The notes: generated by a model not told the origin, from the sequence alone. A DNA stretch of 64,000 nucleotides from Escherichia coli (GCF_045037415.1 NZ_CP173438.1), one strand, 5' to 3'. Counted from the stretch's first letter, positions 7,776-64,000 are shown. A program made the numbers and translations.

Positions 7776-8030
7776 GCCTCGTTTCCCTCATACTGGTTTC
7801 TGGTGGAAAAGAAAACAGTGATTACTAAATATGCAACCACAGTTAAGCAATACCGCGAATCATAACTGCCGTCAATGCGCAAAATTCACGCCACTGTCAT
7901 ATTTGTGAGCTACACGGGCATGTCGGTTGTACAAAAAATGTGAAGAGGAACAACTTTTTCCGCACGTTAGAAACAAAAAAACCGCCTCAGGCAACATACC
8001 GGAGACGGTTATATTTACAAATCTTTATGA

Positions 8031-8594
8031 TTAAGGTAGACGCTTTATCTCTTGCGCAATAGAAGCGGCTTCCTGACTCCAGACACGGGCCAGCACTTTA
8101 ACCATCTCATCGTAACCATCCTGAGTTTGCACTCCTTCCAGACGGAACGGACGTTTGATCAGTTGTCCCTGGTGGTTCAACAGCCACTCACCACTGACAA
8201 TGACCTTGCCATCATAGCGACCGTTAAACTCCGTGACGGTAACATTGAGCGTGTCCTGGGCGCTTCCCAGAGGCTGGGAGGCAACCACCCAGCCGGGCAG
8301 TTGCGTACTCAGGTTGGCAACCAGGGTGTTGCGCAACTGTTGATCCAACGGGCTGGCCCACAAGTTGTTGTTGGCAATCACATACTTCACATCACTGGTT
8401 TGATAAACCACACCATTCCCCGCCAGATAGTCAGGAACAGCGACCTGCTCAACCCATAACAGGCGATTACCCTGGCTGGCGGTGCTTTGTGTACCGCTCT
8501 GCACCACAGGTAACTGGTAATAGTTTTTATTAATTTCACCGGAGCTGCATCCGGCCAGCCACAGTGCCGCAATCGTCACTAGCCACTTTTTCAT
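8031..8594 (-). CDS. pqiC: Lipoprotein PqiC (YmbA), 187 aa
   Basis: Lipobox LAGC signal peptide; synteny with pqiAB. Confidence 0.88.
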   Translation of the reverse strand: MKKWLVTIAALWLAGCSSGEINKNYYQLPVVQSGTQSTASQGNRLLWVEQVAVPDYLAGNGVVYQTSDVKYVIANNNLWASPLDQQLRNTLVANLSTQLPGWVVASQPLGSAQDTLNVTVTEFNGRYDGKVIVSGEWLLNHQGQLIKRPFRLEGVQTQDGYDEMVKVLARVWSQEAASIAQEIKRLP

Positions 8595-55886: not shown

Positions 55887-55961
<75 letters not shown>

Positions 55962-55962
55962 T

Positions 55963-56040
<78 letters not shown>

Positions 56041-56049
56041 TTGCAGATA

Positions 56050-56439
56050 TTACTCTTTTTTCTCCGTATCTGCATCGGGTTCATCAGCAAATAGCTTGCC
56101 CTGCATCCGATCCAGTTCTTCTTTTCTTACCCGCTTAACCACGCTGTAGACCCACTGAAGCGAAACACCAAATTTGCGGGCCAGTTCGTGGTGGTTGCGT
56201 CCGTTAAACTCCCTGAAGATTTCCCGGTCGCGCTGACTGACCTTCCATACCATGCCCATCGGGAAATAAACGTTTTGCCCGCCCCAGACCTGCATCATTC
56301 GGTTCGCGACGGCCTGACCAATCTGGTCGGCAACTTCGGGCTCAATATCAATAATCTCGCGAACGGTCTCAGAGGTATGCTGTGCCAGTTCCACCAGGAG
56401 TTCCGGCCCCTTACTTCGAAACTGATTCAGGTCGCTCAT
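56050..56439 (-). CDS. mor: Mor/C-family transcriptional activator (Mu middle-operon regulator homologue), 129 aa
   Basis: Same length as Mu Mor; motifs GGQNVYFP and REFNGRNHHELARKFGVSLQWVYSVVKRVR parallel the Mor HTH region as recalled. Confidence 0.75.
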   Translation of the reverse strand: MSDLNQFRSKGPELLVELAQHTSETVREIIDIEPEVADQIGQAVANRMMQVWGGQNVYFPMGMVWKVSQRDREIFREFNGRNHHELARKFGVSLQWVYSVVKRVRKEELDRMQGKLFADEPDADTEKKE

Positions 56440-56860
56440 GTTTGACTCCCGCAGCTCTGCGCTGCCACTTCTTCAGTTTCTCAATAACACTGCTTGCCTG
56501 TTCAGTACTGAGCCAGCGCAGGGCGCTGATGCCCGTTTCCCGCTTGATCCACCTCGCTAATGCATTTTCTGAACGGTCACGAACAATGCCGGCAGCAGCC
56601 ATTTCAAGCCATAGCGCACGAATTTTCCTGGACTGCGGATGGTTATCAAGCGGTAAACCGGAGCTGGCTTTTCTGGCTGGTTTAACGCGAAAGCCTTTCT
56701 TTTTCATGGATTCCAGCACGCAGTTTAGTTGTGTGGTATCCATTCCTTTGGTTGAGGCTTTACCGGTCAGCCCCTGTAACATCTGGCGGTAGGTGTCTTC
56801 ATCCATACCCAGTTCATTACGGGCAATATGGATAAGCTGTATCAGGCGTTTTTTCTGCAT
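56411..56860 (-). CDS. GemA-like protein (Mu gp16 / DUF1018 family), 149 aa
   Basis: N-terminal LIQLIHIARNELGMDEDTYRQMLQGLTGKASTKGM resembles Mu GemA/gp16 as recalled; sits immediately upstream of mor as in Mu. Confidence 0.55.
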   Translation of the reverse strand: MQKKRLIQLIHIARNELGMDEDTYRQMLQGLTGKASTKGMDTTQLNCVLESMKKKGFRVKPARKASSGLPLDNHPQSRKIRALWLEMAAAGIVRDRSENALARWIKRETGISALRWLSTEQASSVIEKLKKWQRRAAGVKHERPESVSK

Positions 56861-56861
56861 A

Positions 56862-57068
56862 TCATCTCCTTTTTTTCAGTCTGTCGGCAACAATGTCGGT
56901 TGCAGCTGGCAGGGTGACTGGCCAGAACAACATGACGGCGGTCATGTACAGGATGTAATGCGCGGTGTCGTAGTGCCTGCCATAGCCCAGGGAACGATGA
57001 AGTCTTGCGCTGCATGATCCTGCGTACATATACCAGAAAAGAAAACAGACAATGGTTTCAGTAGTCAT
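56862..57068 (-). CDS. Small hydrophobic protein, about 68 aa (start at internal Met of track ORF 56862..57224)
   Basis: MTTETIVCFLFWYMYAGSCSA... predicted TM segments; packed between neighbouring genes. Confidence 0.3.
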   Translation of the reverse strand: MTTETIVCFLFWYMYAGSCSARLHRSLGYGRHYDTAHYILYMTAVMLFWPVTLPAATDIVADRLKKRR

Positions 57069-57288
57069 TCTGAATACCTCCCCATTCGATATGAATATTA
57101 CGGGCAGCAATGACAGGGTCGTTATTCCACCATGCACCTGACATGTATTTTTCAACCTGTTCGCGTCCGGCAATAACACCAATTGTGATCCCCGGCCTGA
57201 CGTTCTTAAAAAAGGCGCGGGCAAAAAGGTATCTGGCAGATATTCGGCAGGCTTTTAATTTCCGGCTTTTACCTGATAGCGTAATCAT
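57058..57288 (-). CDS. Hypothetical phage protein, 76 aa
   Basis: Start overlaps the stop of the upstream gene (coupled arrangement); no recognisable motif. Confidence 0.35.
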   Translation of the reverse strand: MITLSGKSRKLKACRISARYLFARAFFKNVRPGITIGVIAGREQVEKYMSGAWWNNDPVIAARNIHIEWGGIQNDY

Positions 57289-57968
57289 CTGGCCTCCAGT
57301 TTCTGTTGTTCCTGCCCACTGACCGGGCGGTGCAGTCTGACGTTCTGCCCTTCACGAAACCCCGCATAGCGCGAGGCGTCGCCATTGCGGCTTCTTCCCG
57401 GTTTACGCGCCCTGGTGGTTTGCGTCTGCGGGTATTTATGTTCCAGCCACTGCTGCATCAGTTCACGCTCATCATCGGTCAGGGCAAAGGACTGTATTTC
57501 ACTGATAACGGCCAGCACCCAGCCTTCGGCAAACTGGTCTCCACGGCTGGTGCGGGTGGCGGTTTTTATTCTTTTGTTCTGTGCACTGATATACTGCTGA
57601 CGCGCCTTTTTCAGCTGACGGGCCAGCACTTCCCAGGTGTATGCAGCCAGTGCCGCACGTTCCCGGTTGCCGTAGAACCCCACAGACGGATGCGTGCCGG
57701 GGTGAATGATGGAGTTAACACCAAATACCTCGCGGATGATGTTCATCAGGCCCAGCATGTAGCGCGGTGGACGGAGACTGCCTGTCGGCCAGTAGTGACT
57801 GATGGTTTCATCAATATCACTCATAGCAATGTCGGAATGTGTGATGCCGTGAACATCCATCAGTTTACGGGCTCGGCGCAGTGCCAGAGCGGCCTCGTGC
57901 GGGTTGCCGGATGCGGCCAGCGCCAGCAACTTTTTCAGTTTCTCAATGTGTTTATTCTGGTCTGTCAT
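57285..57968 (-). CDS. Hypothetical phage protein with DUF2786-like N-terminal motif, about 227 aa
   Basis: KHIEKLKKLLALAASGNPHEAALALRRARKLMDVHGI motif; start placed at the second Met to avoid a 40-nt overlap (track ORF 57285..58004). Confidence 0.45.
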   Translation of the reverse strand: MTDQNKHIEKLKKLLALAASGNPHEAALALRRARKLMDVHGITHSDIAMSDIDETISHYWPTGSLRPPRYMLGLMNIIREVFGVNSIIHPGTHPSVGFYGNRERAALAAYTWEVLARQLKKARQQYISAQNKRIKTATRTSRGDQFAEGWVLAVISEIQSFALTDDERELMQQWLEHKYPQTQTTRARKPGRSRNGDASRYAGFREGQNVRLHRPVSGQEQQKLEAR

Positions 57969-58180
57969 TGTTCTGTATCTCCGGTATTTTTCTGCCGTTT
58001 CCATGCCCGGACAGCGTCGGACAGCTCTTTCAGGCTGTATGCTGCTTTAAGCTTTTCCCATAACCACTGTGTTGTTATGTGCATCAGCAGGGCAGCCAGG
58101 GCTGCCCCCGCACTGAGGCATGTCGCCAGGCCAGTAAGAATCAGTGTCCATGCGGTGATTTCCCTGAGTATGTCAGCCAT
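57965..58180 (-). CDS. Small membrane protein, 71 aa
   Basis: Single predicted TM helix (WTLILTGLATCLSAGAALAALLM) followed by a charged tail. Confidence 0.4.
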   Translation of the reverse strand: MADILREITAWTLILTGLATCLSAGAALAALLMHITTQWLWEKLKAAYSLKELSDAVRAWKRQKNTGDTEQ

Positions 58181-58194
58181 TGAATGCCTCCCGG

Positions 58195-58491
58195 TTACTC
58201 GTTCGTGTAAATCACGCCCAGTCGTGCAGCCAGACGTTCCAGTTTTTTCTGTTTGTGGAAGTCAATCAGCCGGTCCATCCCCTGAAGGCGCAGTTGCTCT
58301 GTCATGATTTCCACGTCTGCCAGCTCTGCCGCGAGGTCACTTTCGCTGCCCTGTCCGTTCAGGTTGCGGGCGGCACTGGCCGCCAGTTCAGCGGCCTCTT
58401 CTGCCAGTTTCAGGGCCTGTGCGTCCGGCCCGAAACGCTGCAGGGCCAGACGGTAGAGGGCGGTGCGGGTGAGTTCGGTGTTTCGTGTCAT
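58195..58491 (-). CDS. MazG-like nucleotide pyrophosphohydrolase-domain protein, 98 aa
   Basis: EEAAELAA...AAELADVEIM pattern typical of the small all-alpha MazG/HisE fold. Confidence 0.5.
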   Translation of the reverse strand: MTRNTELTRTALYRLALQRFGPDAQALKLAEEAAELAASAARNLNGQGSESDLAAELADVEIMTEQLRLQGMDRLIDFHKQKKLERLAARLGVIYTNE

Positions 58492-58500
58492 GCCGCGCCC

Positions 58501-58773
58501 TCAGTGCTTCCGGCTGACGGTGATGTGCAGGCCGCCTTCTGCAGTGGTTTCCATCCGGTACGGCACCTCATGCTCTGCCGTGTGGGTGAGTGTGTTCATC
58601 AGTACCTGCAGGGCAGCCTCCTTTCCGTTGGTCGCCACAATGGCCTGTGTGGCCATGCTGATTAGCGCCGTCAGGACGTGCTTCACATCGGTGAGGTCGC
58701 GGCATTCACACTCGTTGACATAGTGTTCAACAAGGGTTCGGGTGCGCTGTCGTGCTTCCTGTGGGGTAATCAT
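58501..58773 (-). CDS. Hypothetical phage protein, 90 aa
   Basis: ORF in operon context, coupled to the downstream gene; no motif recognised. Confidence 0.4.
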   Translation of the reverse strand: MITPQEARQRTRTLVEHYVNECECRDLTDVKHVLTALISMATQAIVATNGKEAALQVLMNTLTHTAEHEVPYRMETTAEGGLHITVSRKH

Positions 58774-58964
58774 TGCGAGTCCTCCCTGTCAGGGCGGGAG
58801 AATTCCATGACGGGCACGTCTGCCGAAAAATGCTGGCTGCAGTACGGGCAGACCAGGGTGACGCGTACCGCAGGGATGTGGTATTTACCGGACATCACGG
58901 CGATGGCGCTGTGAAAACGCAGGGCTGTTATATCCCTCTCGCACTGAATACATTTAAATATCAT
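58770..58964 (-). CDS. Small zinc-ribbon protein, 64 aa
   Basis: CxxC (CIQC) ... CxxC (CPYC) pairs. Confidence 0.45.
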   Translation of the reverse strand: MIFKCIQCERDITALRFHSAIAVMSGKYHIPAVRVTLVCPYCSQHFSADVPVMEFSRPDREDSQ

Positions 58965-59061
58965 GATTTAATTCTCCTCTGTTTCCGGCGTGCAGAAGCC
59001 CGCGGCGCTGACGTCGGAATAAAAAAGAAAATGTTTTTATTAAATAATTAACGTGGTGTGT

Positions 59062-59592
59062 TTACTGCACATCCTGCTCAAAAGGAATTATTGAAAAATC
59101 CTCAATGTCGCTTTTAATGGAAATACCGGGAATATTTTTCACGGCCTCTTTTTCATTCAGGATAGCGTCTTTATTTATTTCCTCTTTTACACGAATAAAG
59201 CGCTCAAGCCCCAGACGTCTCAGTAATTCAATAACATTATCCGCCCCACGGATACTGACTGATGGCGGACGGTTTCGCCACTGCACCTCGCCGGTGGTGA
59301 GGTTAGCGAACTTCACCTTCCCGTTGCCGGTCAGTTCATCACGGTGTGCCTCACACCATGTCTGAATACCGGACTGCAGTTCGGCCATGCGTTTTTTCAG
59401 GCTCTCGGTGAGCGGGGCATAACGTGCGGTGATATCGCCAATGGCGTCATTCATTTCTGTTTCAGCCCTGACCAGTTCACGTTGTGCGTCACCGAGTAGT
59501 CTGATTCCCTCAATGACCTCTTCACGTGTCCCCGGCACCCAGAGTGCTGCTGCGGCCTTGATACGTTTTGCACCTTTTGTACTTTTTGCCAT
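59062..59592 (-). CDS. gam: Gam-like host-nuclease inhibitor / DNA-end binding protein (Mu Gam family), 176 aa
   Basis: MAKSTKGAKRIKAAAALWVP...TEMNDAIGDIT...WCEAHRDELT...VSIRGADNVIELLRRLGLERFIRVKEEINKDAIL...FSIIPFEQD closely parallels Mu Gam as recalled. Confidence 0.85.
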   Translation of the reverse strand: MAKSTKGAKRIKAAAALWVPGTREEVIEGIRLLGDAQRELVRAETEMNDAIGDITARYAPLTESLKKRMAELQSGIQTWCEAHRDELTGNGKVKFANLTTGEVQWRNRPPSVSIRGADNVIELLRRLGLERFIRVKEEINKDAILNEKEAVKNIPGISIKSDIEDFSIIPFEQDVQ

Positions 59593-59619
59593 TTTTTATG
59601 ATTTCTCCAGTTGTGCTGA

Positions 59620-59889
59620 TTACCACAAAGATTCCGGCCACACGACGCGACAGCCGTGCAGTTCGAAAACGCCCTGACGGAAATATCCCCTGTGGTCATG
59701 TCCGGTATACAGATAACAGGCCTTTCCCTGCTCAAGCATGCGCATGCAATGCGCACTCCGGGAAACGCGGATGACAGGTTTGTTACCCCTGATGGTGATG
59801 CTTTGTACATCCGTGTTCGTCGCCTTAAGCGCCATAATGGCTGACTGCACTTTGCTGATTTGCTGGTTGATACCTGTGGTGGATTTCAT
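59620..59889 (-). CDS. Hypothetical phage protein, 89 aa
   Basis: ORF between the MuB-like gene and gam, where Mu carries kil; no motif recognised. Confidence 0.4.
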   Translation of the reverse strand: MKSTTGINQQISKVQSAIMALKATNTDVQSITIRGNKPVIRVSRSAHCMRMLEQGKACYLYTGHDHRGYFRQGVFELHGCRVVWPESLW

Positions 59890-59891
59890 TA

Positions 59892-61097
59892 TTAAACCCC
59901 TTTGACAACGTCAGCGTTGACCTGTGGAACCCCGATTTCAGCGGCCAGATTCATGGCGGCTATTACCAGGTTACTGACGGCCAGCGGATACAGCAGGCTG
60001 ACCATATTTTTACGGTGACTTCCCGGATTGCTCAGGCGGGCACGTATGGCATCCACTGCACCGGCGTCCATAATGTCCGTCAGCTGTTTACCGGCCCGTT
60101 GCAGTTTGAACGTCAGAAATTCTTCAAGGTTATTGTCCAGAGGCAGAAGTTCGACCACCTCACAGCGCTGAACGACTTCACGGACTTCCATATTGCGTTC
60201 AGACAGTTTTGTCGCCAGTTCCGGCTGGCCAATCAGCACGATGGACAGCAGTTTTTTGAAACCGGACTCCAGCTCAAAAAAGCGTTTGAGGTGTTTCAGT
60301 GTCGGAATGGGCAGACTGTGGGCCTCCTCAATCACCAGAACGTGGCTGAACCCCGCCTGGCTGCTGTCTTTCAGGACGCGATGCAACTGGCGAAAACGGG
60401 CGTCCTGACTGCGTCTGATGCTTTCCAGTGGTGCGATGGTACTGATAATGGCTTCGGCAATAGCTGCTGCCTTCAGGGTTTTCCCTTTCACATCGTTGTC
60501 TTCCATAGCGATGATGTATGGCTCGATAACAATTACCGGCGCATTCTCGCGGTTGATACGTTCAGTCAGGTCGCGGCGCAGCGTGGATTTACCCGCACCG
60601 GACTCACCGATGACGGCCATAAACCCACCATGACGGGCTGTCTGGTACAGCGCCTCACGCACGTAGCGAATGTCCGGGGTGGTGAACACATCATCAGAAC
60701 CCTGCATGGCTTCGTCGGCGAACGGGTCACGGAAAAGACCAAACGCTTTTTTGGTTGCTGGAAATAACACCTGTTTTTTGAGTAACATATTCTCTTCCTC
60801 ACTGAGGCTCGTTTTATCTGTGGTACCCGCTGTACGGGGCGTGGCCGCGCCCTGTACAGCATCAAAACTCTTCGTTGTATCAATCCCCTGACTTTCCAGC
60901 CAGGACGCAAGACGCCGGCGCACTTCTCCGGGGCTGGTGCGGGGCCACGCGTTATGATTCACAATCTGGGCCAGCGTGGCCTCAGAAACATCGACAGCTC
61001 TCGCCACCACCGCCTGTGGAATACGGGCCTCTTTCAGTTGCTGCTTCAGTACCAGCATGTTTCCCTCCTCAGTTGCCGTTAACAATGCTGATAACAC
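59892..61097 (-). CDS. MuB-like transposition ATPase (N-terminal HTH plus AAA+), up to 401 aa
   Basis: Walker A GESGAGKST, N-terminal Xre-like HTH (AVVARAVDVSEATLAQIV); immediately downstream of the transposase; start uncertain (the Met at 61058 would remove the overlap with the transposase gene). Confidence 0.8.
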   Translation of the reverse strand: MLSALLTATEEGNMLVLKQQLKEARIPQAVVARAVDVSEATLAQIVNHNAWPRTSPGEVRRRLASWLESQGIDTTKSFDAVQGAATPRTAGTTDKTSLSEEENMLLKKQVLFPATKKAFGLFRDPFADEAMQGSDDVFTTPDIRYVREALYQTARHGGFMAVIGESGAGKSTLRRDLTERINRENAPVIVIEPYIIAMEDNDVKGKTLKAAAIAEAIISTIAPLESIRRSQDARFRQLHRVLKDSSQAGFSHVLVIEEAHSLPIPTLKHLKRFFELESGFKKLLSIVLIGQPELATKLSERNMEVREVVQRCEVVELLPLDNNLEEFLTFKLQRAGKQLTDIMDAGAVDAIRARLSNPGSHRKNMVSLLYPLAVSNLVIAAMNLAAEIGVPQVNADVVKGV

Positions 61098-62838
61098 TGC
61101 TGCGGGCCGGTGTGGTCAGCGTGGCCATGACTTCATCCAGTGCGGCTTCCGGTACGCCGTCCGGGTACTGTGCCGTTAACTGGCGGTAATGTTCCGGCGT
61201 CCAGGTAAGGCCGTCGGCGCTGAACTTATCGCGCAGGGCTTTCGCGGCCTCCACATGAGTCATGGGACGTTGTTCAGTGCGCGGCCCGCGTACGTCAGAG
61301 GCCTGACCACGCTTCGGCATATAGGCCGGAAGTGTGGTGTCGTCGATATGTTTATACGGGTCAAGCCGCCCGCCGAACGGCAGCGCCTTCGCCTTGCGTG
61401 CGGCGGCTGCATCTGCGGCGTTGTCTGTACCGGTAACCAGCGCTTCGGTTTCTTTTGCCGCCATCTGTGCCGGGGTTTCCGGCAGGGCTTTGTAACTTTC
61501 GCCAAATACCGCCGCGCCTTCAGCAAAGCCAAACTCGTTCTTTCTGACCTCTTCGACCAGGAAGAACGTCTCGTGGCCGTCCTCACCGGTCAGAACCACC
61601 TGTGCCACATCGCTGCGCCATGGGTTACGGGTAATCATCAGTTTTTCACCAACCAGTACGCCCGGTACCGTTGATACGTCAAATTCAGTGCCCCGGAACG
61701 AGACACGAAGTTTTGGCGTGACTTTGCGGAGTTCTGGTGCCGCCACAGCCAGTTCACGACATACCTCAACGGAAGGCGCTTTTTTCAGCTGCTCAGCAGT
61801 AATCTTCAGCCAGATATCCGTGCGGGTTTTACCGTGGCGGCTGTGAACAGCCGTGGCGTTAAAGTGGCTGCGCCATTTCGCGGCCAGCGCGTTGAGTTCT
61901 TCCAGACTGTGAACCGGCCGGAACTTCAGACCCGGCTCCAGCTTGCGTTCGATAATGTCACGCGCCTTTTCCACCTGTCCGGTGGCGCGGGCGTTATGCG
62001 GCTTGTGCGCTATCAGGTCGATGCCCAGTGAGCGGCACATGTTTTTCGTCATACCCGCGGTGTTTGCCGAGCCGGGGTCGAGATAGAGTATTTTCGGCAC
62101 GCCGTGCAGCACGTCTGCGCCGCCACGCTCCTGCATGGCGTTGATAAGCACAGAACACAGGTTCTCACCTGATTCCGCGCCCGTCACATACTCAACGTAA
62201 ATCCAGCCGCTGGCATGGTCGGTAATCTCGTAACTCCACACGCGGTCACTGGCGATACGGGCAAGGTTAGCGGGCTTGTTCTTGTAGAACTTCGCGCTGT
62301 CCATCACCTGCAGCCCTTTATGTCCATTGCTCAGGTAGTAAAGCGTGCAGAGTGAGGCGTCAATCTGCCAGACATGATTGGGATGCAGACTGGCCACTTC
62401 GGTATGTGGTGCAGGGGCATCCAGTTGTTCCGGGTGCAGGCCATAGTTACGCAGAGCACGGCTGATGGCATCTTCAGACAACGGGAAAAACTCACTGGTG
62501 GTTTCATCTGTTCTGCCTGCGGTGATAAAGCCGTTAGCCCGCAGGGTTTCCACTGCATCTGCGATGGAATAGAGACGCTTACCGTTCTTGCGGGTGGCCT
62601 CACGCAGTGTGGCAGATATCAGCGCGGCTTCGTCGCGGGTCAGGGCGCTGCGCCCGGCATCGGCGCGTTTTTTGCGTTTATCAGTCACAGATACCTCCTT
62701 CAGCCTGCGCAGCAGAGTGGCGCGGGACATGCCAAGTTCAGCACAGGCAGCGTCGTATATTGCACCGCGTTTACCATGCCCCGCGTCACGTGCCGCGCGG
62801 GCTGTTTCAACCAGTTTTTCAGTCAGTGCCGGGGTCAT
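61069..62838 (-). CDS. DDE (rve/Mu-type) transposase, 589 aa
   Basis: N-terminal HTH; catalytic core with VWQIDAS ... YLDPGSANT ... ATGQVE arrangement. Confidence 0.85.
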   Translation of the reverse strand: MTPALTEKLVETARAARDAGHGKRGAIYDAACAELGMSRATLLRRLKEVSVTDKRKKRADAGRSALTRDEAALISATLREATRKNGKRLYSIADAVETLRANGFITAGRTDETTSEFFPLSEDAISRALRNYGLHPEQLDAPAPHTEVASLHPNHVWQIDASLCTLYYLSNGHKGLQVMDSAKFYKNKPANLARIASDRVWSYEITDHASGWIYVEYVTGAESGENLCSVLINAMQERGGADVLHGVPKILYLDPGSANTAGMTKNMCRSLGIDLIAHKPHNARATGQVEKARDIIERKLEPGLKFRPVHSLEELNALAAKWRSHFNATAVHSRHGKTRTDIWLKITAEQLKKAPSVEVCRELAVAAPELRKVTPKLRVSFRGTEFDVSTVPGVLVGEKLMITRNPWRSDVAQVVLTGEDGHETFFLVEEVRKNEFGFAEGAAVFGESYKALPETPAQMAAKETEALVTGTDNAADAAAARKAKALPFGGRLDPYKHIDDTTLPAYMPKRGQASDVRGPRTEQRPMTHVEAAKALRDKFSADGLTWTPEHYRQLTAQYPDGVPEAALDEVMATLTTPARSSVISIVNGN

Positions 62839-62853
62839 AGCTTGTCTTCCCTG

Positions 62854-63171
62854 TTATCCGATTCTGGCGGCAATTTTTCTGGCGAGGTCGCACAGTGTTT
62901 CGCCATCGCAGGTTTTCACCACGGTATTTACCGGTTGCGGTGCAACTACCGGGCGTAATGCTGACTGATTCTGCAGACGTCTTATCTGCTGCATCAGCAT
63001 CACCTCCATCGTCAGTACAAACGGGTGCGTCTCCTGTGCGGGTACGCAGATTTCACCGGAAGGGGTCACCACGCGGAAACCCTGCACCATCTCCGGCAGC
63101 AGATTACACAGTGCGTGCCCCAGTGCCTCCGGGCTGTCCATCAGGGTATTTTGTGTGTTATTCGTATTCAT
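62854..63171 (-). CDS. Hypothetical phage protein, 105 aa
   Basis: ORF immediately upstream of the transposase; start overlaps the stop of the upstream gene. Confidence 0.4.
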   Translation of the reverse strand: MNTNNTQNTLMDSPEALGHALCNLLPEMVQGFRVVTPSGEICVPAQETHPFVLTMEVMLMQQIRRLQNQSALRPVVAPQPVNTVVKTCDGETLCDLARKIAARIG

Positions 63172-64000
63172 TACTGCATATCCTCCGGTCGGTTGATTTC
63201 AGGTTCCGGTTCGGTCAGCCAGGCGGGGGCATCGTTACCCGATGGAGCGGCCTCAAGGTCAAACGTCTCACGTAATGCATGAACACTGCGTTCAATCTGG
63301 CAGACCAGACCGGCCATGAAATCTCTGGGGGTATCGATCATGTTTTTGGTGCAGTATTCACACAGGGTCTCAAAAACACTGGACAGCCGGACGGCGATAG
63401 CCGATTCGGCCTCAACCGCTAATGCCGTCACTTCCGCCCGCAATTTTTTCAGTTCTTCGTCTGGCGGCGGAGGTTGCAGGCGCGATTTCTTCTCCAGTTT
63501 TGTGGCCAGTTCGTTGATTTTTTCGTCCTTTCCGGCAAGCACCTGTTGCTGAGCTGCGTTGGTTTCGCGCGCTTCACGCAGGGCGGCCTTCAGTTCGCGG
63601 CTGGTCATGCGATCAATATCATCAAGCGTTGCACCGGCGACGGTTCCACCATCAGCTAATGCGTCGAGTTCTTCGTCATCCAGAACCATCAGTTCATATA
63701 ACTTGGTTTTTCCCAAAACGCTCAGCGCTGAGCGTTTTGGCTGTTCATCTCCATTGCCGAGAAATTTCACGCTGGCCTGCATCATGCGACGAGCTACCTG
63801 TGGTGCTAATCCGAGGTCGTTTTCCAGAATATTTGTGAAATCACCATGCGGTTCATTTTCTTTTAAGATGATCAGCCGCTTACCCGCTTCCAACATAGAT
63901 TCAGCACTCTGCGCCATATAAAAACGTGCTTCGTGAACGATGCGTTCACGTTCATAAGGCAGTCCATCACCAAACTGCTGCATGATCTCCATGCGATGCT
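63171..64000 (-). CDS. Hypothetical phage protein, at least 273 aa, probably 5'-truncated by the window edge
   Basis: Long ORF with coiled-coil-like C-terminal half; reading frame stays open to position 64000. Confidence 0.45.
   Translation of the reverse strand, partial: HRMEIMQQFGDGLPYERERIVHEARFYMAQSAESMLEAGKRLIILKENEPHGDFTNILENDLGLAPQVARRMMQASVKFLGNGDEQPKRSALSVLGKTKLYELMVLDDEELDALADGGTVAGATLDDIDRMTSRELKAALREARETNAAQQQVLAGKDEKINELATKLEKKSRLQPPPPDEELKKLRAEVTALAVEAESAIAVRLSSVFETLCEYCTKNMIDTPRDFMAGLVCQIERSVHALRETFDLEAAPSGNDAPAWLTEPEPEINRPEDMQ

Follow-up and report, generated by a model that had tools for sequence, protein, structure and literature searches.

The last 8 kb of the 64,000-nt stretch of Escherichia coli DNA analysed here (GCF_045037415.1, NZ_CP173438.1; the whole stretch is called the window below) form one arm of a transposable prophage of the BcepMu type (Bcepmuvirus) that adjoins ycaL, and the window ends within the early operon of this prophage. 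The long gene found at that end encodes a DUF3102 protein and is conserved directly upstream of a Tn552-like transposase A and an ExeA-like ATPase B. This gene carries a perfect palindrome that is under selection as DNA, and the type of the palindrome agrees with residues of a predicted helix-turn-helix (HTH) motif encoded by the same gene. We favour, with a probability of about 0.55, the interpretation that the DUF3102 protein is a dimeric HTH protein that would bind a site in its own gene and act on the transposition module. In the literature searched we found no description of an intragenic, covarying dyad that matches the recognition helix of its own gene product and is exchanged with it as a cassette.

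A palindrome within the DUF3102 gene is maintained at the DNA level

Codons 118-127 of the DUF3102 gene contain a perfect 28-bp palindrome (CCAAAACGCTCAGC followed directly by GCTGAGCGTTTTGG), which is a candidate dyad-symmetric binding site. It is present in a single copy both in the 64-kb window and in the 37.8-kb prophage, in which neither extra copies nor half-sites were found, and it is the only palindrome of the window with no spacer and arms of at least 9 nt, the longest arm in shuffled versions of the window being 7.8 nt on average. Related viral loci were collected together with a domain alignment of the DUF3102 protein, and at the homologous codons at least 12 out of 16 complementary pairs were counted in 52 of the 59 non-redundant loci, including those of phages BcepMu, B3, phiE255 and KP12. 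The homologous palindromes are 24-32 bp long in most relatives, in phages of Burkholderia and Pseudomonas as well as in E. coli. The palindrome is also found in the Microcystis phage Mae-JY22 and in a family member of 537 amino acids (aa), and it is imperfect in phiSHP3. Among the family members with N-terminal extensions, P0201 (L007:2105-3718) retains a perfect 28-bp palindrome at the homologous position.

The outer arms of these palindromes, CAAAA and TTTTG, are conserved, and the inner 5-6 bases are type-specific and exactly compensated on the opposite arm. Covariation was computed on 33 distinct sites, with 500 shuffles and controls in which the partner position was slid. Complementary cells amounted to 95.6%, changes on both sides were observed in 9 of 13 pairs, and the covariation score was 0.492, compared with 0.135 +/- 0.017 for the shuffles (none of the 500 reached the observed score) and 0.02-0.07 for the slid controls. 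Complementarity and covariation extend to the two innermost pairs (AGCGCT, AACGTT, TTAA, TCGA) and, since such pairs cannot form in an RNA hairpin, these results indicate that the conserved element is a dyad in double-stranded DNA.

Constraint on the DNA itself was also evident in the synonymous positions. For pairs of genes chosen by identical residues 119-126 and by transposases (TnpA) below 90% identity, synonymous codon differences were 7% inside the palindrome and 55-62% in the flanks. With one most-divergent pair per type, that is, five independent pairs, the counts were 4/40 inside the palindrome and 149/228 in the flanks. The synonymous sites in the palindrome are nearly frozen, which shows selection at the DNA level. 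The loop encoded by the palindrome is indel-prone and has the lowest confidence of the domain in the structural model, which is consistent with a DNA constraint located where the protein tolerates change.

The predicted recognition helix agrees with the type of half-site

The AlphaFold model of the full protein (predicted local distance difference test, pLDDT, 88.5) is composed of N-terminal helices, an HTH-like core, a conserved acidic segment, three long helices and an acidic disordered tail; the pLDDT of the domain model is 91.6. The long helices (residues 164-205, 210-249 and 256-277) correspond to the C-terminal half that had been described as coiled-coil-like in the original prediction, which was made from the window sequence. 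Of all segments, only the HTH core is basic, its mean charge in the family being +2.8. The best structural matches of the N-terminal domain were the DNA-binding domains of ParB, Spo0J, KorB, SopB and VirB, with Foldseek matches to PDB that were not significant. No ParBc or ParB_N match in Pfam or NCBIfam was obtained for the protein or for 105 relatives, and the model contains only helices N-terminal to the HTH, with no ParB/Srx-like (CTPase) domain. The assignment of an HTH fold to the N-terminal domain, made on the predicted structure, is tentative.

Residues 98, 100, 101 and 102, located in the predicted recognition helix, gave a ratio of mutual information to entropy (MI/H) of 1.00 with the half-site type, and outside the codons encoded by the palindrome this value was reached only within residues 98-102. 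Recognition motifs x-x-A-R-R and x-x-A-R-L (residues 98-102) are paired with the half-site AAAA-CG.., and x-x-A-Q-K, x-x-A-Q-R and x-x-A-Q-V with AAAA-GCG..; the motifs T-S-V-R and T-A-H-R, listed for the same residues, are paired with AAAT-GTG.. and AAAA-GTC.., respectively. The same pairings are found in phages with transposases only 46-66% identical, and they recur in Escherichia, Burkholderia and Pseudomonas phages as well as in Mae-JY22. Such a pattern would be expected of a homodimeric HTH protein that reads its own operator.

The predicted helix and the palindrome are exchanged as a cassette

Between close relatives, residues ~84-140, which include the HTH, the loop encoded by the palindrome and the next helix, are far more diverged than the rest of the gene. 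At least 21 types of this hypervariable cassette were distinguished in the 59 non-redundant loci. A single type can be shared by phages with transposases 49-93% identical, and no fewer than six types occur in phages whose transposases are at least 92% identical. Pairwise similarity of the cassette was uncorrelated with that of the neighbouring segments (Spearman rho 0.03-0.14; 0.06 for the immunity region, 0.03 for the product of the preceding winged-HTH (wHTH) gene, and 0.09 for the TnpA N-terminus), which indicates that the cassette is swapped separately from the remainder of the gene. The similarity of residues 1-83 tracks that of the wHTH protein (rho 0.87), and that of residues 171-280 tracks the transposase (rho 0.89-0.90). 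A sliding covariation scan from -4.4 to +4.8 kb showed a peak only at the cassette, and no other segment or locally encoded DNA-binding protein covarying with it was found in this interval. A linkage of the HTH type to the immunity region, similar to the overlap of enhancer and operators in Mu, was considered and rejected in view of the rho of 0.06 and the lack of a covarying segment.

A comparison of BcepMu gp10 (L003:4992-5945) with phiE255 gp41 (L006:4001-4918) rendered near-identical C-terminal halves and very different N-terminal halves, a contrast between the two sequences that indicates domain-level shuffling between closely related Burkholderia phages.

The cassette type of the window is present in 389 of 5426 complete E. 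coli genomes (~7%), ST131 strains included, at a total of 391 places, and is carried twice in two of the 389. The transposase family was located at 707 tnpA places in 638 E. coli genomes, some with two or three such prophages; E. coli AR_0067 (NZ_CP032261.1), for instance, has two tnpA copies but only one site of the window's cassette type. These counts in polylysogens may hint at an incompatibility-like assortment.

The DUF3102 gene and its family

The original prediction had pointed to two unknown open reading frames (ORFs), translationally coupled and situated upstream of the transposase, and to the truncation of the longer one at the window edge. Both are real and lie directly upstream of the transposase gene, as supported by the ORF list, the sequence, the TAATG overlap, PHROG and RefSeq (Table 1), and both belong to existing families, the long one to DUF3102 and the short one to phrog_5446. 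Starting at the first ATG in the window (63992), the long ORF comprises 273 aa (63171-63992, minus strand), and its frame is free of stops from there to 64000. The phrog_1748 profile (E 9.5e-131) is matched by the window fragment at positions 34-301, so that ~33 N-terminal residues were predicted to lie beyond the window. The region past position 64000 was read from an E. coli record with 100% identity to the window over 3001 nt. There, the gene extends to 306 codons (window-equivalent 63171-64091) and has a proper start in the context TAAGGAGTAATCAATG, with the ATG 91 nt past position 64000; the AAGGAG ribosome site ahead of it shares bases with the stop codon of the preceding gene. At its other end, it shares one base with the ORF of 105 aa in the TAATG overlap, which provides for translational coupling.

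The RefSeq accessions are WP_000533817.1 for the long protein, named by NCBI as 'DUF3102 domain-containing protein', and WP_001095645.1 for the short one. The Pfam profile DUF3102 (PF11300) is matched with an E of 1.2e-5 by the window fragment and of 1.5e-5 by the full protein, and at E <= 0.001 by 66 of 105 family representatives. The ratio of nonsynonymous to synonymous substitution rates (dN/dS) of the DUF3102 gene is 0.10-0.19. The PHROG matches, the dN/dS values, the preservation of the frame across a variant with an 18-codon indel and the RefSeq annotation indicate that both ORFs are more than chance reading frames; as such, they are an ordinary pair of annotated prophage genes. Profile searches rendered no homology to structural proteins, no Pfam or NCBIfam match of either ORF to the Mu repressor c or to Ner was obtained, in agreement with the original prediction, and PADLOC and NCBIfam gave no meaningful match for either.

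Orthologs of the DUF3102 gene are BcepMu gp10, B3 ORF13 and phiE255 gp41 (39-55% identity over 95% of the length by tblastn). The order wHTH, DUF3102, A, B was observed in 75 of 76 informative loci out of 80 IMG/VR viral loci, and the same synteny was found in BcepMu, B3, phiE255, KP12, PM105, phiSHP3 and Bise. The family comprises 1585 clusters at 50% identity, and its distant members have the same gene context. The sole exception in synteny is a locus (L029, IMGVR_UViG_2606217112_000003) in which the matches to wHTH, A and B are located on the other strand; its 305-aa ORF (L029:4483-5400) joins the N-terminal domain and coiled coil of DUF3102 to an XRE/Cro-type HTH at the C-terminus, and the palindrome is absent from it. 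Other members (P0201, P0205, P0247, P0248, P0191 and P0257) are 430-545 aa long and have N-terminal extensions, several of them with repeated Cys-rich motifs.

No functional work on DUF3102, BcepMu gp10, ParB-like proteins of Mu-like phages or BcepMu palindromes was found in the literature searched. A proteomic study of extended-spectrum beta-lactamase E. coli quantified one DUF3102 protein, one HTH protein and one Gam protein (QGA32865, QGA32870, QGA32871), the accession of the DUF3102 protein being consecutive with that of the detected HTH protein and five away from that of the detected Gam protein (PMC9927464). Early-operon proteins of such prophages are therefore detectable in cultures.

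The early operon and the transposition genes

Many complete E. coli chromosomes, as well as Escherichia phage PhiKM, contain the last 3 kb of the window with 100% identity. The early operon of the 37.8-kb prophage runs on the minus strand from a gp16-family HTH gene through the wHTH, DUF3102, 105-aa, A and B genes, and is followed downstream of B by an 89-aa gene, Gam and more genes as far as GemA and Mor. Beyond the window, the gene preceding DUF3102 encodes an IclR-type wHTH protein of 102 aa. The gene at the Ner position encodes a BcepMu-gp16-family HTH protein of 62 aa (TIGR04111, 97.4 bits; cut-off 34), and a divergent gene encodes an RstR/DicA-like XRE repressor of 118 aa (E about 1e-10). 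The sole sigma-70-like promoter of the region is located between the XRE repressor and gp16-family genes. Repressor, gp16-family gene and promoter are thus all further upstream, outside the window, so that the two ORFs do not lie where repressor and Ner would be expected, as the original prediction had proposed. No Rfam match was found in window positions 55900-64000, and no ParA-like gene is annotated in the prophage. The junction of prophage and host is situated between ycaL and the Mor gene (window 55907-56050), an interval that holds an A9 run.

The Pfam matches of transposase A are limited to rve and a weak HTH_8, and its phrog_310 match begins at profile position 130, which indicates that the protein has no counterpart of the N-terminal enhancer-binding domain of MuA. 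The longest ORF for ATPase B (window 59892-61097) has a GTG start, encodes 401 aa and overlaps the end of tnpA; the start annotated in RefSeq is 13 codons downstream.

Table 1. Positions in the window of the genes and predicted elements discussed in the text
Feature	Position	Strand	Basis
Transposition ATPase B, ExeA/AAA_22 type, 388 aa (RefSeq start)	59892..61058	-	phrog_296 (E 5.5e-93), RefSeq
Transposase A, 589 aa, rve DDE core, Tn552/B3-type	61069..62838	-	Pfam, phrog_310
105-aa accessory ORF (phrog_5446; WP_001095645.1)	62854..63171	-	ORF list, PHROG
TAATG stop/start overlap of the DUF3102 gene with the 105-aa ORF	63169..63173	-	Sequence
DUF3102 gene, codons 31-306 (of 306) and stop	63171..64000	-	ORF list, identical record, Pfam, phrog_1748
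C-terminal helical region, residues 164-277, putative oligomerisation/partner-binding region	63261..63602	-	AlphaFold (pLDDT ~97)
Hypervariable cassette, residues ~84-140: HTH, palindrome-encoded loop and next helix	63672..63842	-	Locus comparison
Perfect 28-bp palindrome, codons 118-127 of the DUF3102 gene, candidate dyad-symmetric binding site	63713..63740	.	Palindrome search
Predicted HTH: helix 82-92, recognition helix 97-111	63759..63848	-	Predicted structure

The 105-aa ORF

The 105-aa ORF ends 15 nt ahead of the ATG of the transposase gene (62838), which is preceded by GGGAAG. It matches phrog_5446 over its full length (1-105 of 105 positions; E 1e-73), a family of very narrow distribution: only 11 clusters were found among 5.8 billion proteins, PhiKM was the only match among 50,697 phage records, and the ORF is present in 10 of the 80 viral loci and in 409 of 5426 complete E. 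coli genomes, compared with 641 for the transposase region. It is absent from KP12, BcepMu, B3 and phiE255, in which the DUF3102 gene abuts tnpA. The junction between both genes is a variable slot, occupied in other phages by unrelated ORFs of 99, 73 and 77 aa (L080:5313-5612, L035:5268-5489 and L078:5267-5500). Window positions 62810-63290 (7811-8291 of locus L001) are a mosaic block with 90-98% identity to locus L010, identity being 45-95% otherwise; the block reaches from ~130 nt before the end of the DUF3102 gene, across the whole 105-aa ORF, to ~60 nt into tnpA. This block explains the low synonymous divergence (dS) of the ORF (0.10, versus 0.40-0.81 in the neighbours); an overlapping element had been considered as a cause and was rejected, since the sliding-identity plot shows an ordinary mosaic block.

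The 105-aa ORF is probably, from its sequence conservation, a real, fast-evolving accessory gene that represents a lineage-specific insertion separate from the DUF3102 system. It could instead be a non-functional spacer or a decaying remnant, as its narrow distribution, the lack of similarity in Pfam, NCBIfam, PADLOC or PDB and a dN/dS of 0.31-0.52, several-fold above the neighbours, might suggest. This is improbable, however, given that the dN/dS is still below 1, that the frame and the overlapping, coupled start are preserved in a variant of 55% identity with in-frame deletions, that the TAATG/ATGA coupling is conserved, and that different intact small ORFs fill the same slot in other phages.

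Proposed role and alternative explanations

The DUF3102 protein would act as a dimeric, sequence-specific DNA-binding protein, with a ParB/KorB-like HTH in its N-terminal domain and three long C-terminal helices for oligomerisation or contacts with partners. Its cognate site would be a single dyad of 24-32 bp within its own coding sequence, in the loop just past the recognition helix. Residues 98-102 would read the variable inner bases of the half-site (R101 with AAAA-CG.., Q101 with AAAA-GCG..), and the CAAAA/TTTTG arms would probably be read by conserved residues, HTH and site moving jointly as an exchangeable specificity cassette. The most speculative step is that the resulting nucleoprotein complex, placed ~0.9 kb upstream of tnpA (~0.55 kb in phages without the 105-aa ORF), has the transposition module as its target. 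One possibility is an enhancer-like assembly site that stands in for the enhancer-binding domain absent from the transposase, and another is an intragenic roadblock tuning the expression of A and B. An action on the transposition module is favoured because the transposase has no region equivalent to the enhancer-binding N-terminus of MuA, and because the transposition proteins of B3-like phages differ from those of Mu (PMC5977238).

Several observations weigh against this interpretation. The protein as a whole is very acidic, with a net charge of -19, and sequence and profile searches of PDB found no solved structure that it matches. In PM105, Bise, YO107_2 and L085 the gene is kept and the palindrome is absent. 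The covariation of helix and site is confounded by their distance of only 15-20 codons and, since the palindrome itself encodes residues 118-127, co-adaptation within the protein or linkage in the cassette could contribute to it; residues flanking the site also reach an MI/H of 0.6-0.9 with the site type. The covariation between the C-terminal domain and TnpA (rho 0.9) is likewise confounded by adjacency. As to the function of the complex, an enhancer-like role and a roadblock are both speculative.

Some of these observations would also be expected if the palindrome were a DNA element used by another factor, such as a host factor, a phage protein whose gene lies more than 4.5 kb away, or a cruciform or recombination hotspot driving cassette exchange, the match with the helix being due to linkage. 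Helix and site are inherited as one block, the residues correlated with the site type lie on both sides of it, the cassette boundaries bracket the palindrome, and the evidence for the HTH fold is modest. We nevertheless consider this explanation unlikely, since outside the palindrome codons an MI/H of 1.0 is confined to residues 98-102, the same helix-site pairs are maintained across host genera although the rest of the segment has diverged, and no other local DNA-binding gene covaries with the cassette. A pure recombination hotspot, moreover, would require neither the conservation of inner bases within each type nor frozen synonymous sites. It could also be the case that the palindrome acts as an RNA hairpin in the early transcript, with a role in attenuation, processing or mRNA stabilisation ahead of tnpA. 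A 12-bp stem can be drawn (-19 kcal/mol, z-score -2.66), its A4/T4 arms resemble a bidirectional terminator, and the site is within the operon and upstream of tnpA. This possibility is nonetheless very small: the central pairs (columns 15-18 and 16-17) are complementary and covary (GC 18, AU 12, UA 2) and could not be formed in a hairpin, G:U cells are rare (5/429), no U-run follows the stem, in which the U's are internal and which is followed by GGGAAAAACC, and the palindrome was neither flagged by a terminator scan nor matched by Rfam. Finally, the position of the two ORFs upstream of the transposase, the predicted HTH of the long one and a cassette diversity reminiscent of immunity regions might suggest that they are divergent equivalents of the Mu repressor and Ner, involved in immunity or early regulation. 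This can hardly be credited, because a canonical XRE repressor, a gp16-family gene and a divergent promoter region are all found further upstream, the cassette type is not correlated with the immunity region (rho 0.06), and both genes belong to the early (lytic) strand and share a transcript with A and B, so that neither would be expressed in a lysogen.

A broader extension of the interpretation that we favour, namely a DUF3102 protein that binds a dyad in its own gene, is that protein and dyad constitute the missing enhancer system of B3/BcepMu-type phages. The protein would be a trans-acting binder that replaces domain I-alpha of MuA and nucleates the transpososome, and the cassette types would provide self/non-self discrimination among co-resident Mu-like prophages. 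We regard this extension as doubtful; if it were true, the transposition machinery of each phage would be activated solely on its own genome, by virtue of the diverse types of HTH plus site.

Irrespective of the mechanism, the analysis yields a candidate cis site for a protein, a set of residue-to-base pairings that looks like a recognition code, and natural swap variants open to direct comparison, so that a large family without an assigned function is now given a testable role. The palindrome also exemplifies a coding sequence under strong constraint at the DNA level, ten codons being dictated by it in a tolerant loop, which is relevant to the recoding or annotation of such prophages.

Comparison with known systems

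The predicted system resembles ParB/Spo0J with parS and KorB with its operator OB in that the best structural matches of the N-terminal domain, not significant in Foldseek against PDB, are DNA-binding domains of the ParB type, and in that the arms of the predicted site, a long perfect palindrome, are A/T-rich around a GC core. In Bacillus subtilis, one parS is located within spo0J, and the candidate site described here is also within the gene of the protein that would bind it. The discrete specificity types of the DUF3102 cassette are, in addition, similar to the incompatibility groups of plasmid partition systems. Unlike ParB and KorB, however, the DUF3102 protein lacks the N-terminal ParB/Srx-like (CTPase) domain, and the prophage has no annotated ParA-like partner. 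In spite of its resemblance to a ParB with parS in its gene, the DUF3102 protein is outside the definition of the ParB family.

KfrA of IncP plasmids is an acidic protein with a small N-terminal DNA-binding domain and a long alpha-helical tail. The DUF3102 protein, acidic and with long helices after a small predicted N-terminal DNA-binding domain, is similar in layout, but it has no Pfam match to KfrA_N and its genetic context is different.

The orthologs BcepMu gp10, B3 ORF13 and phiE255 gp41, annotated only as conserved hypothetical proteins, share the position upstream of the transposase and the intragenic palindrome. They differ in their types of HTH and palindrome and in that their genes abut the transposase gene, with no 105-aa ORF in between.

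A further comparison can be made with the Mu enhancer (internal activation sequence, IAS), the role of which has been described (PMC5977238), and with domain I-alpha of MuA. In both cases the early region of a transposable phage has a single internal cis site on the side near the transposase, and here the DUF3102 protein, the candidate reader of the site, is co-expressed with a transposase whose lack of the enhancer-binding N-terminal region of MuA leaves room for a trans-acting factor. The enhancer of Mu, in contrast, overlaps operators and is read by the transposase itself, whereas the dyad of the prophage is intragenic, shows no linkage with the immunity region (rho 0.06), and would have a separate protein as its reader.

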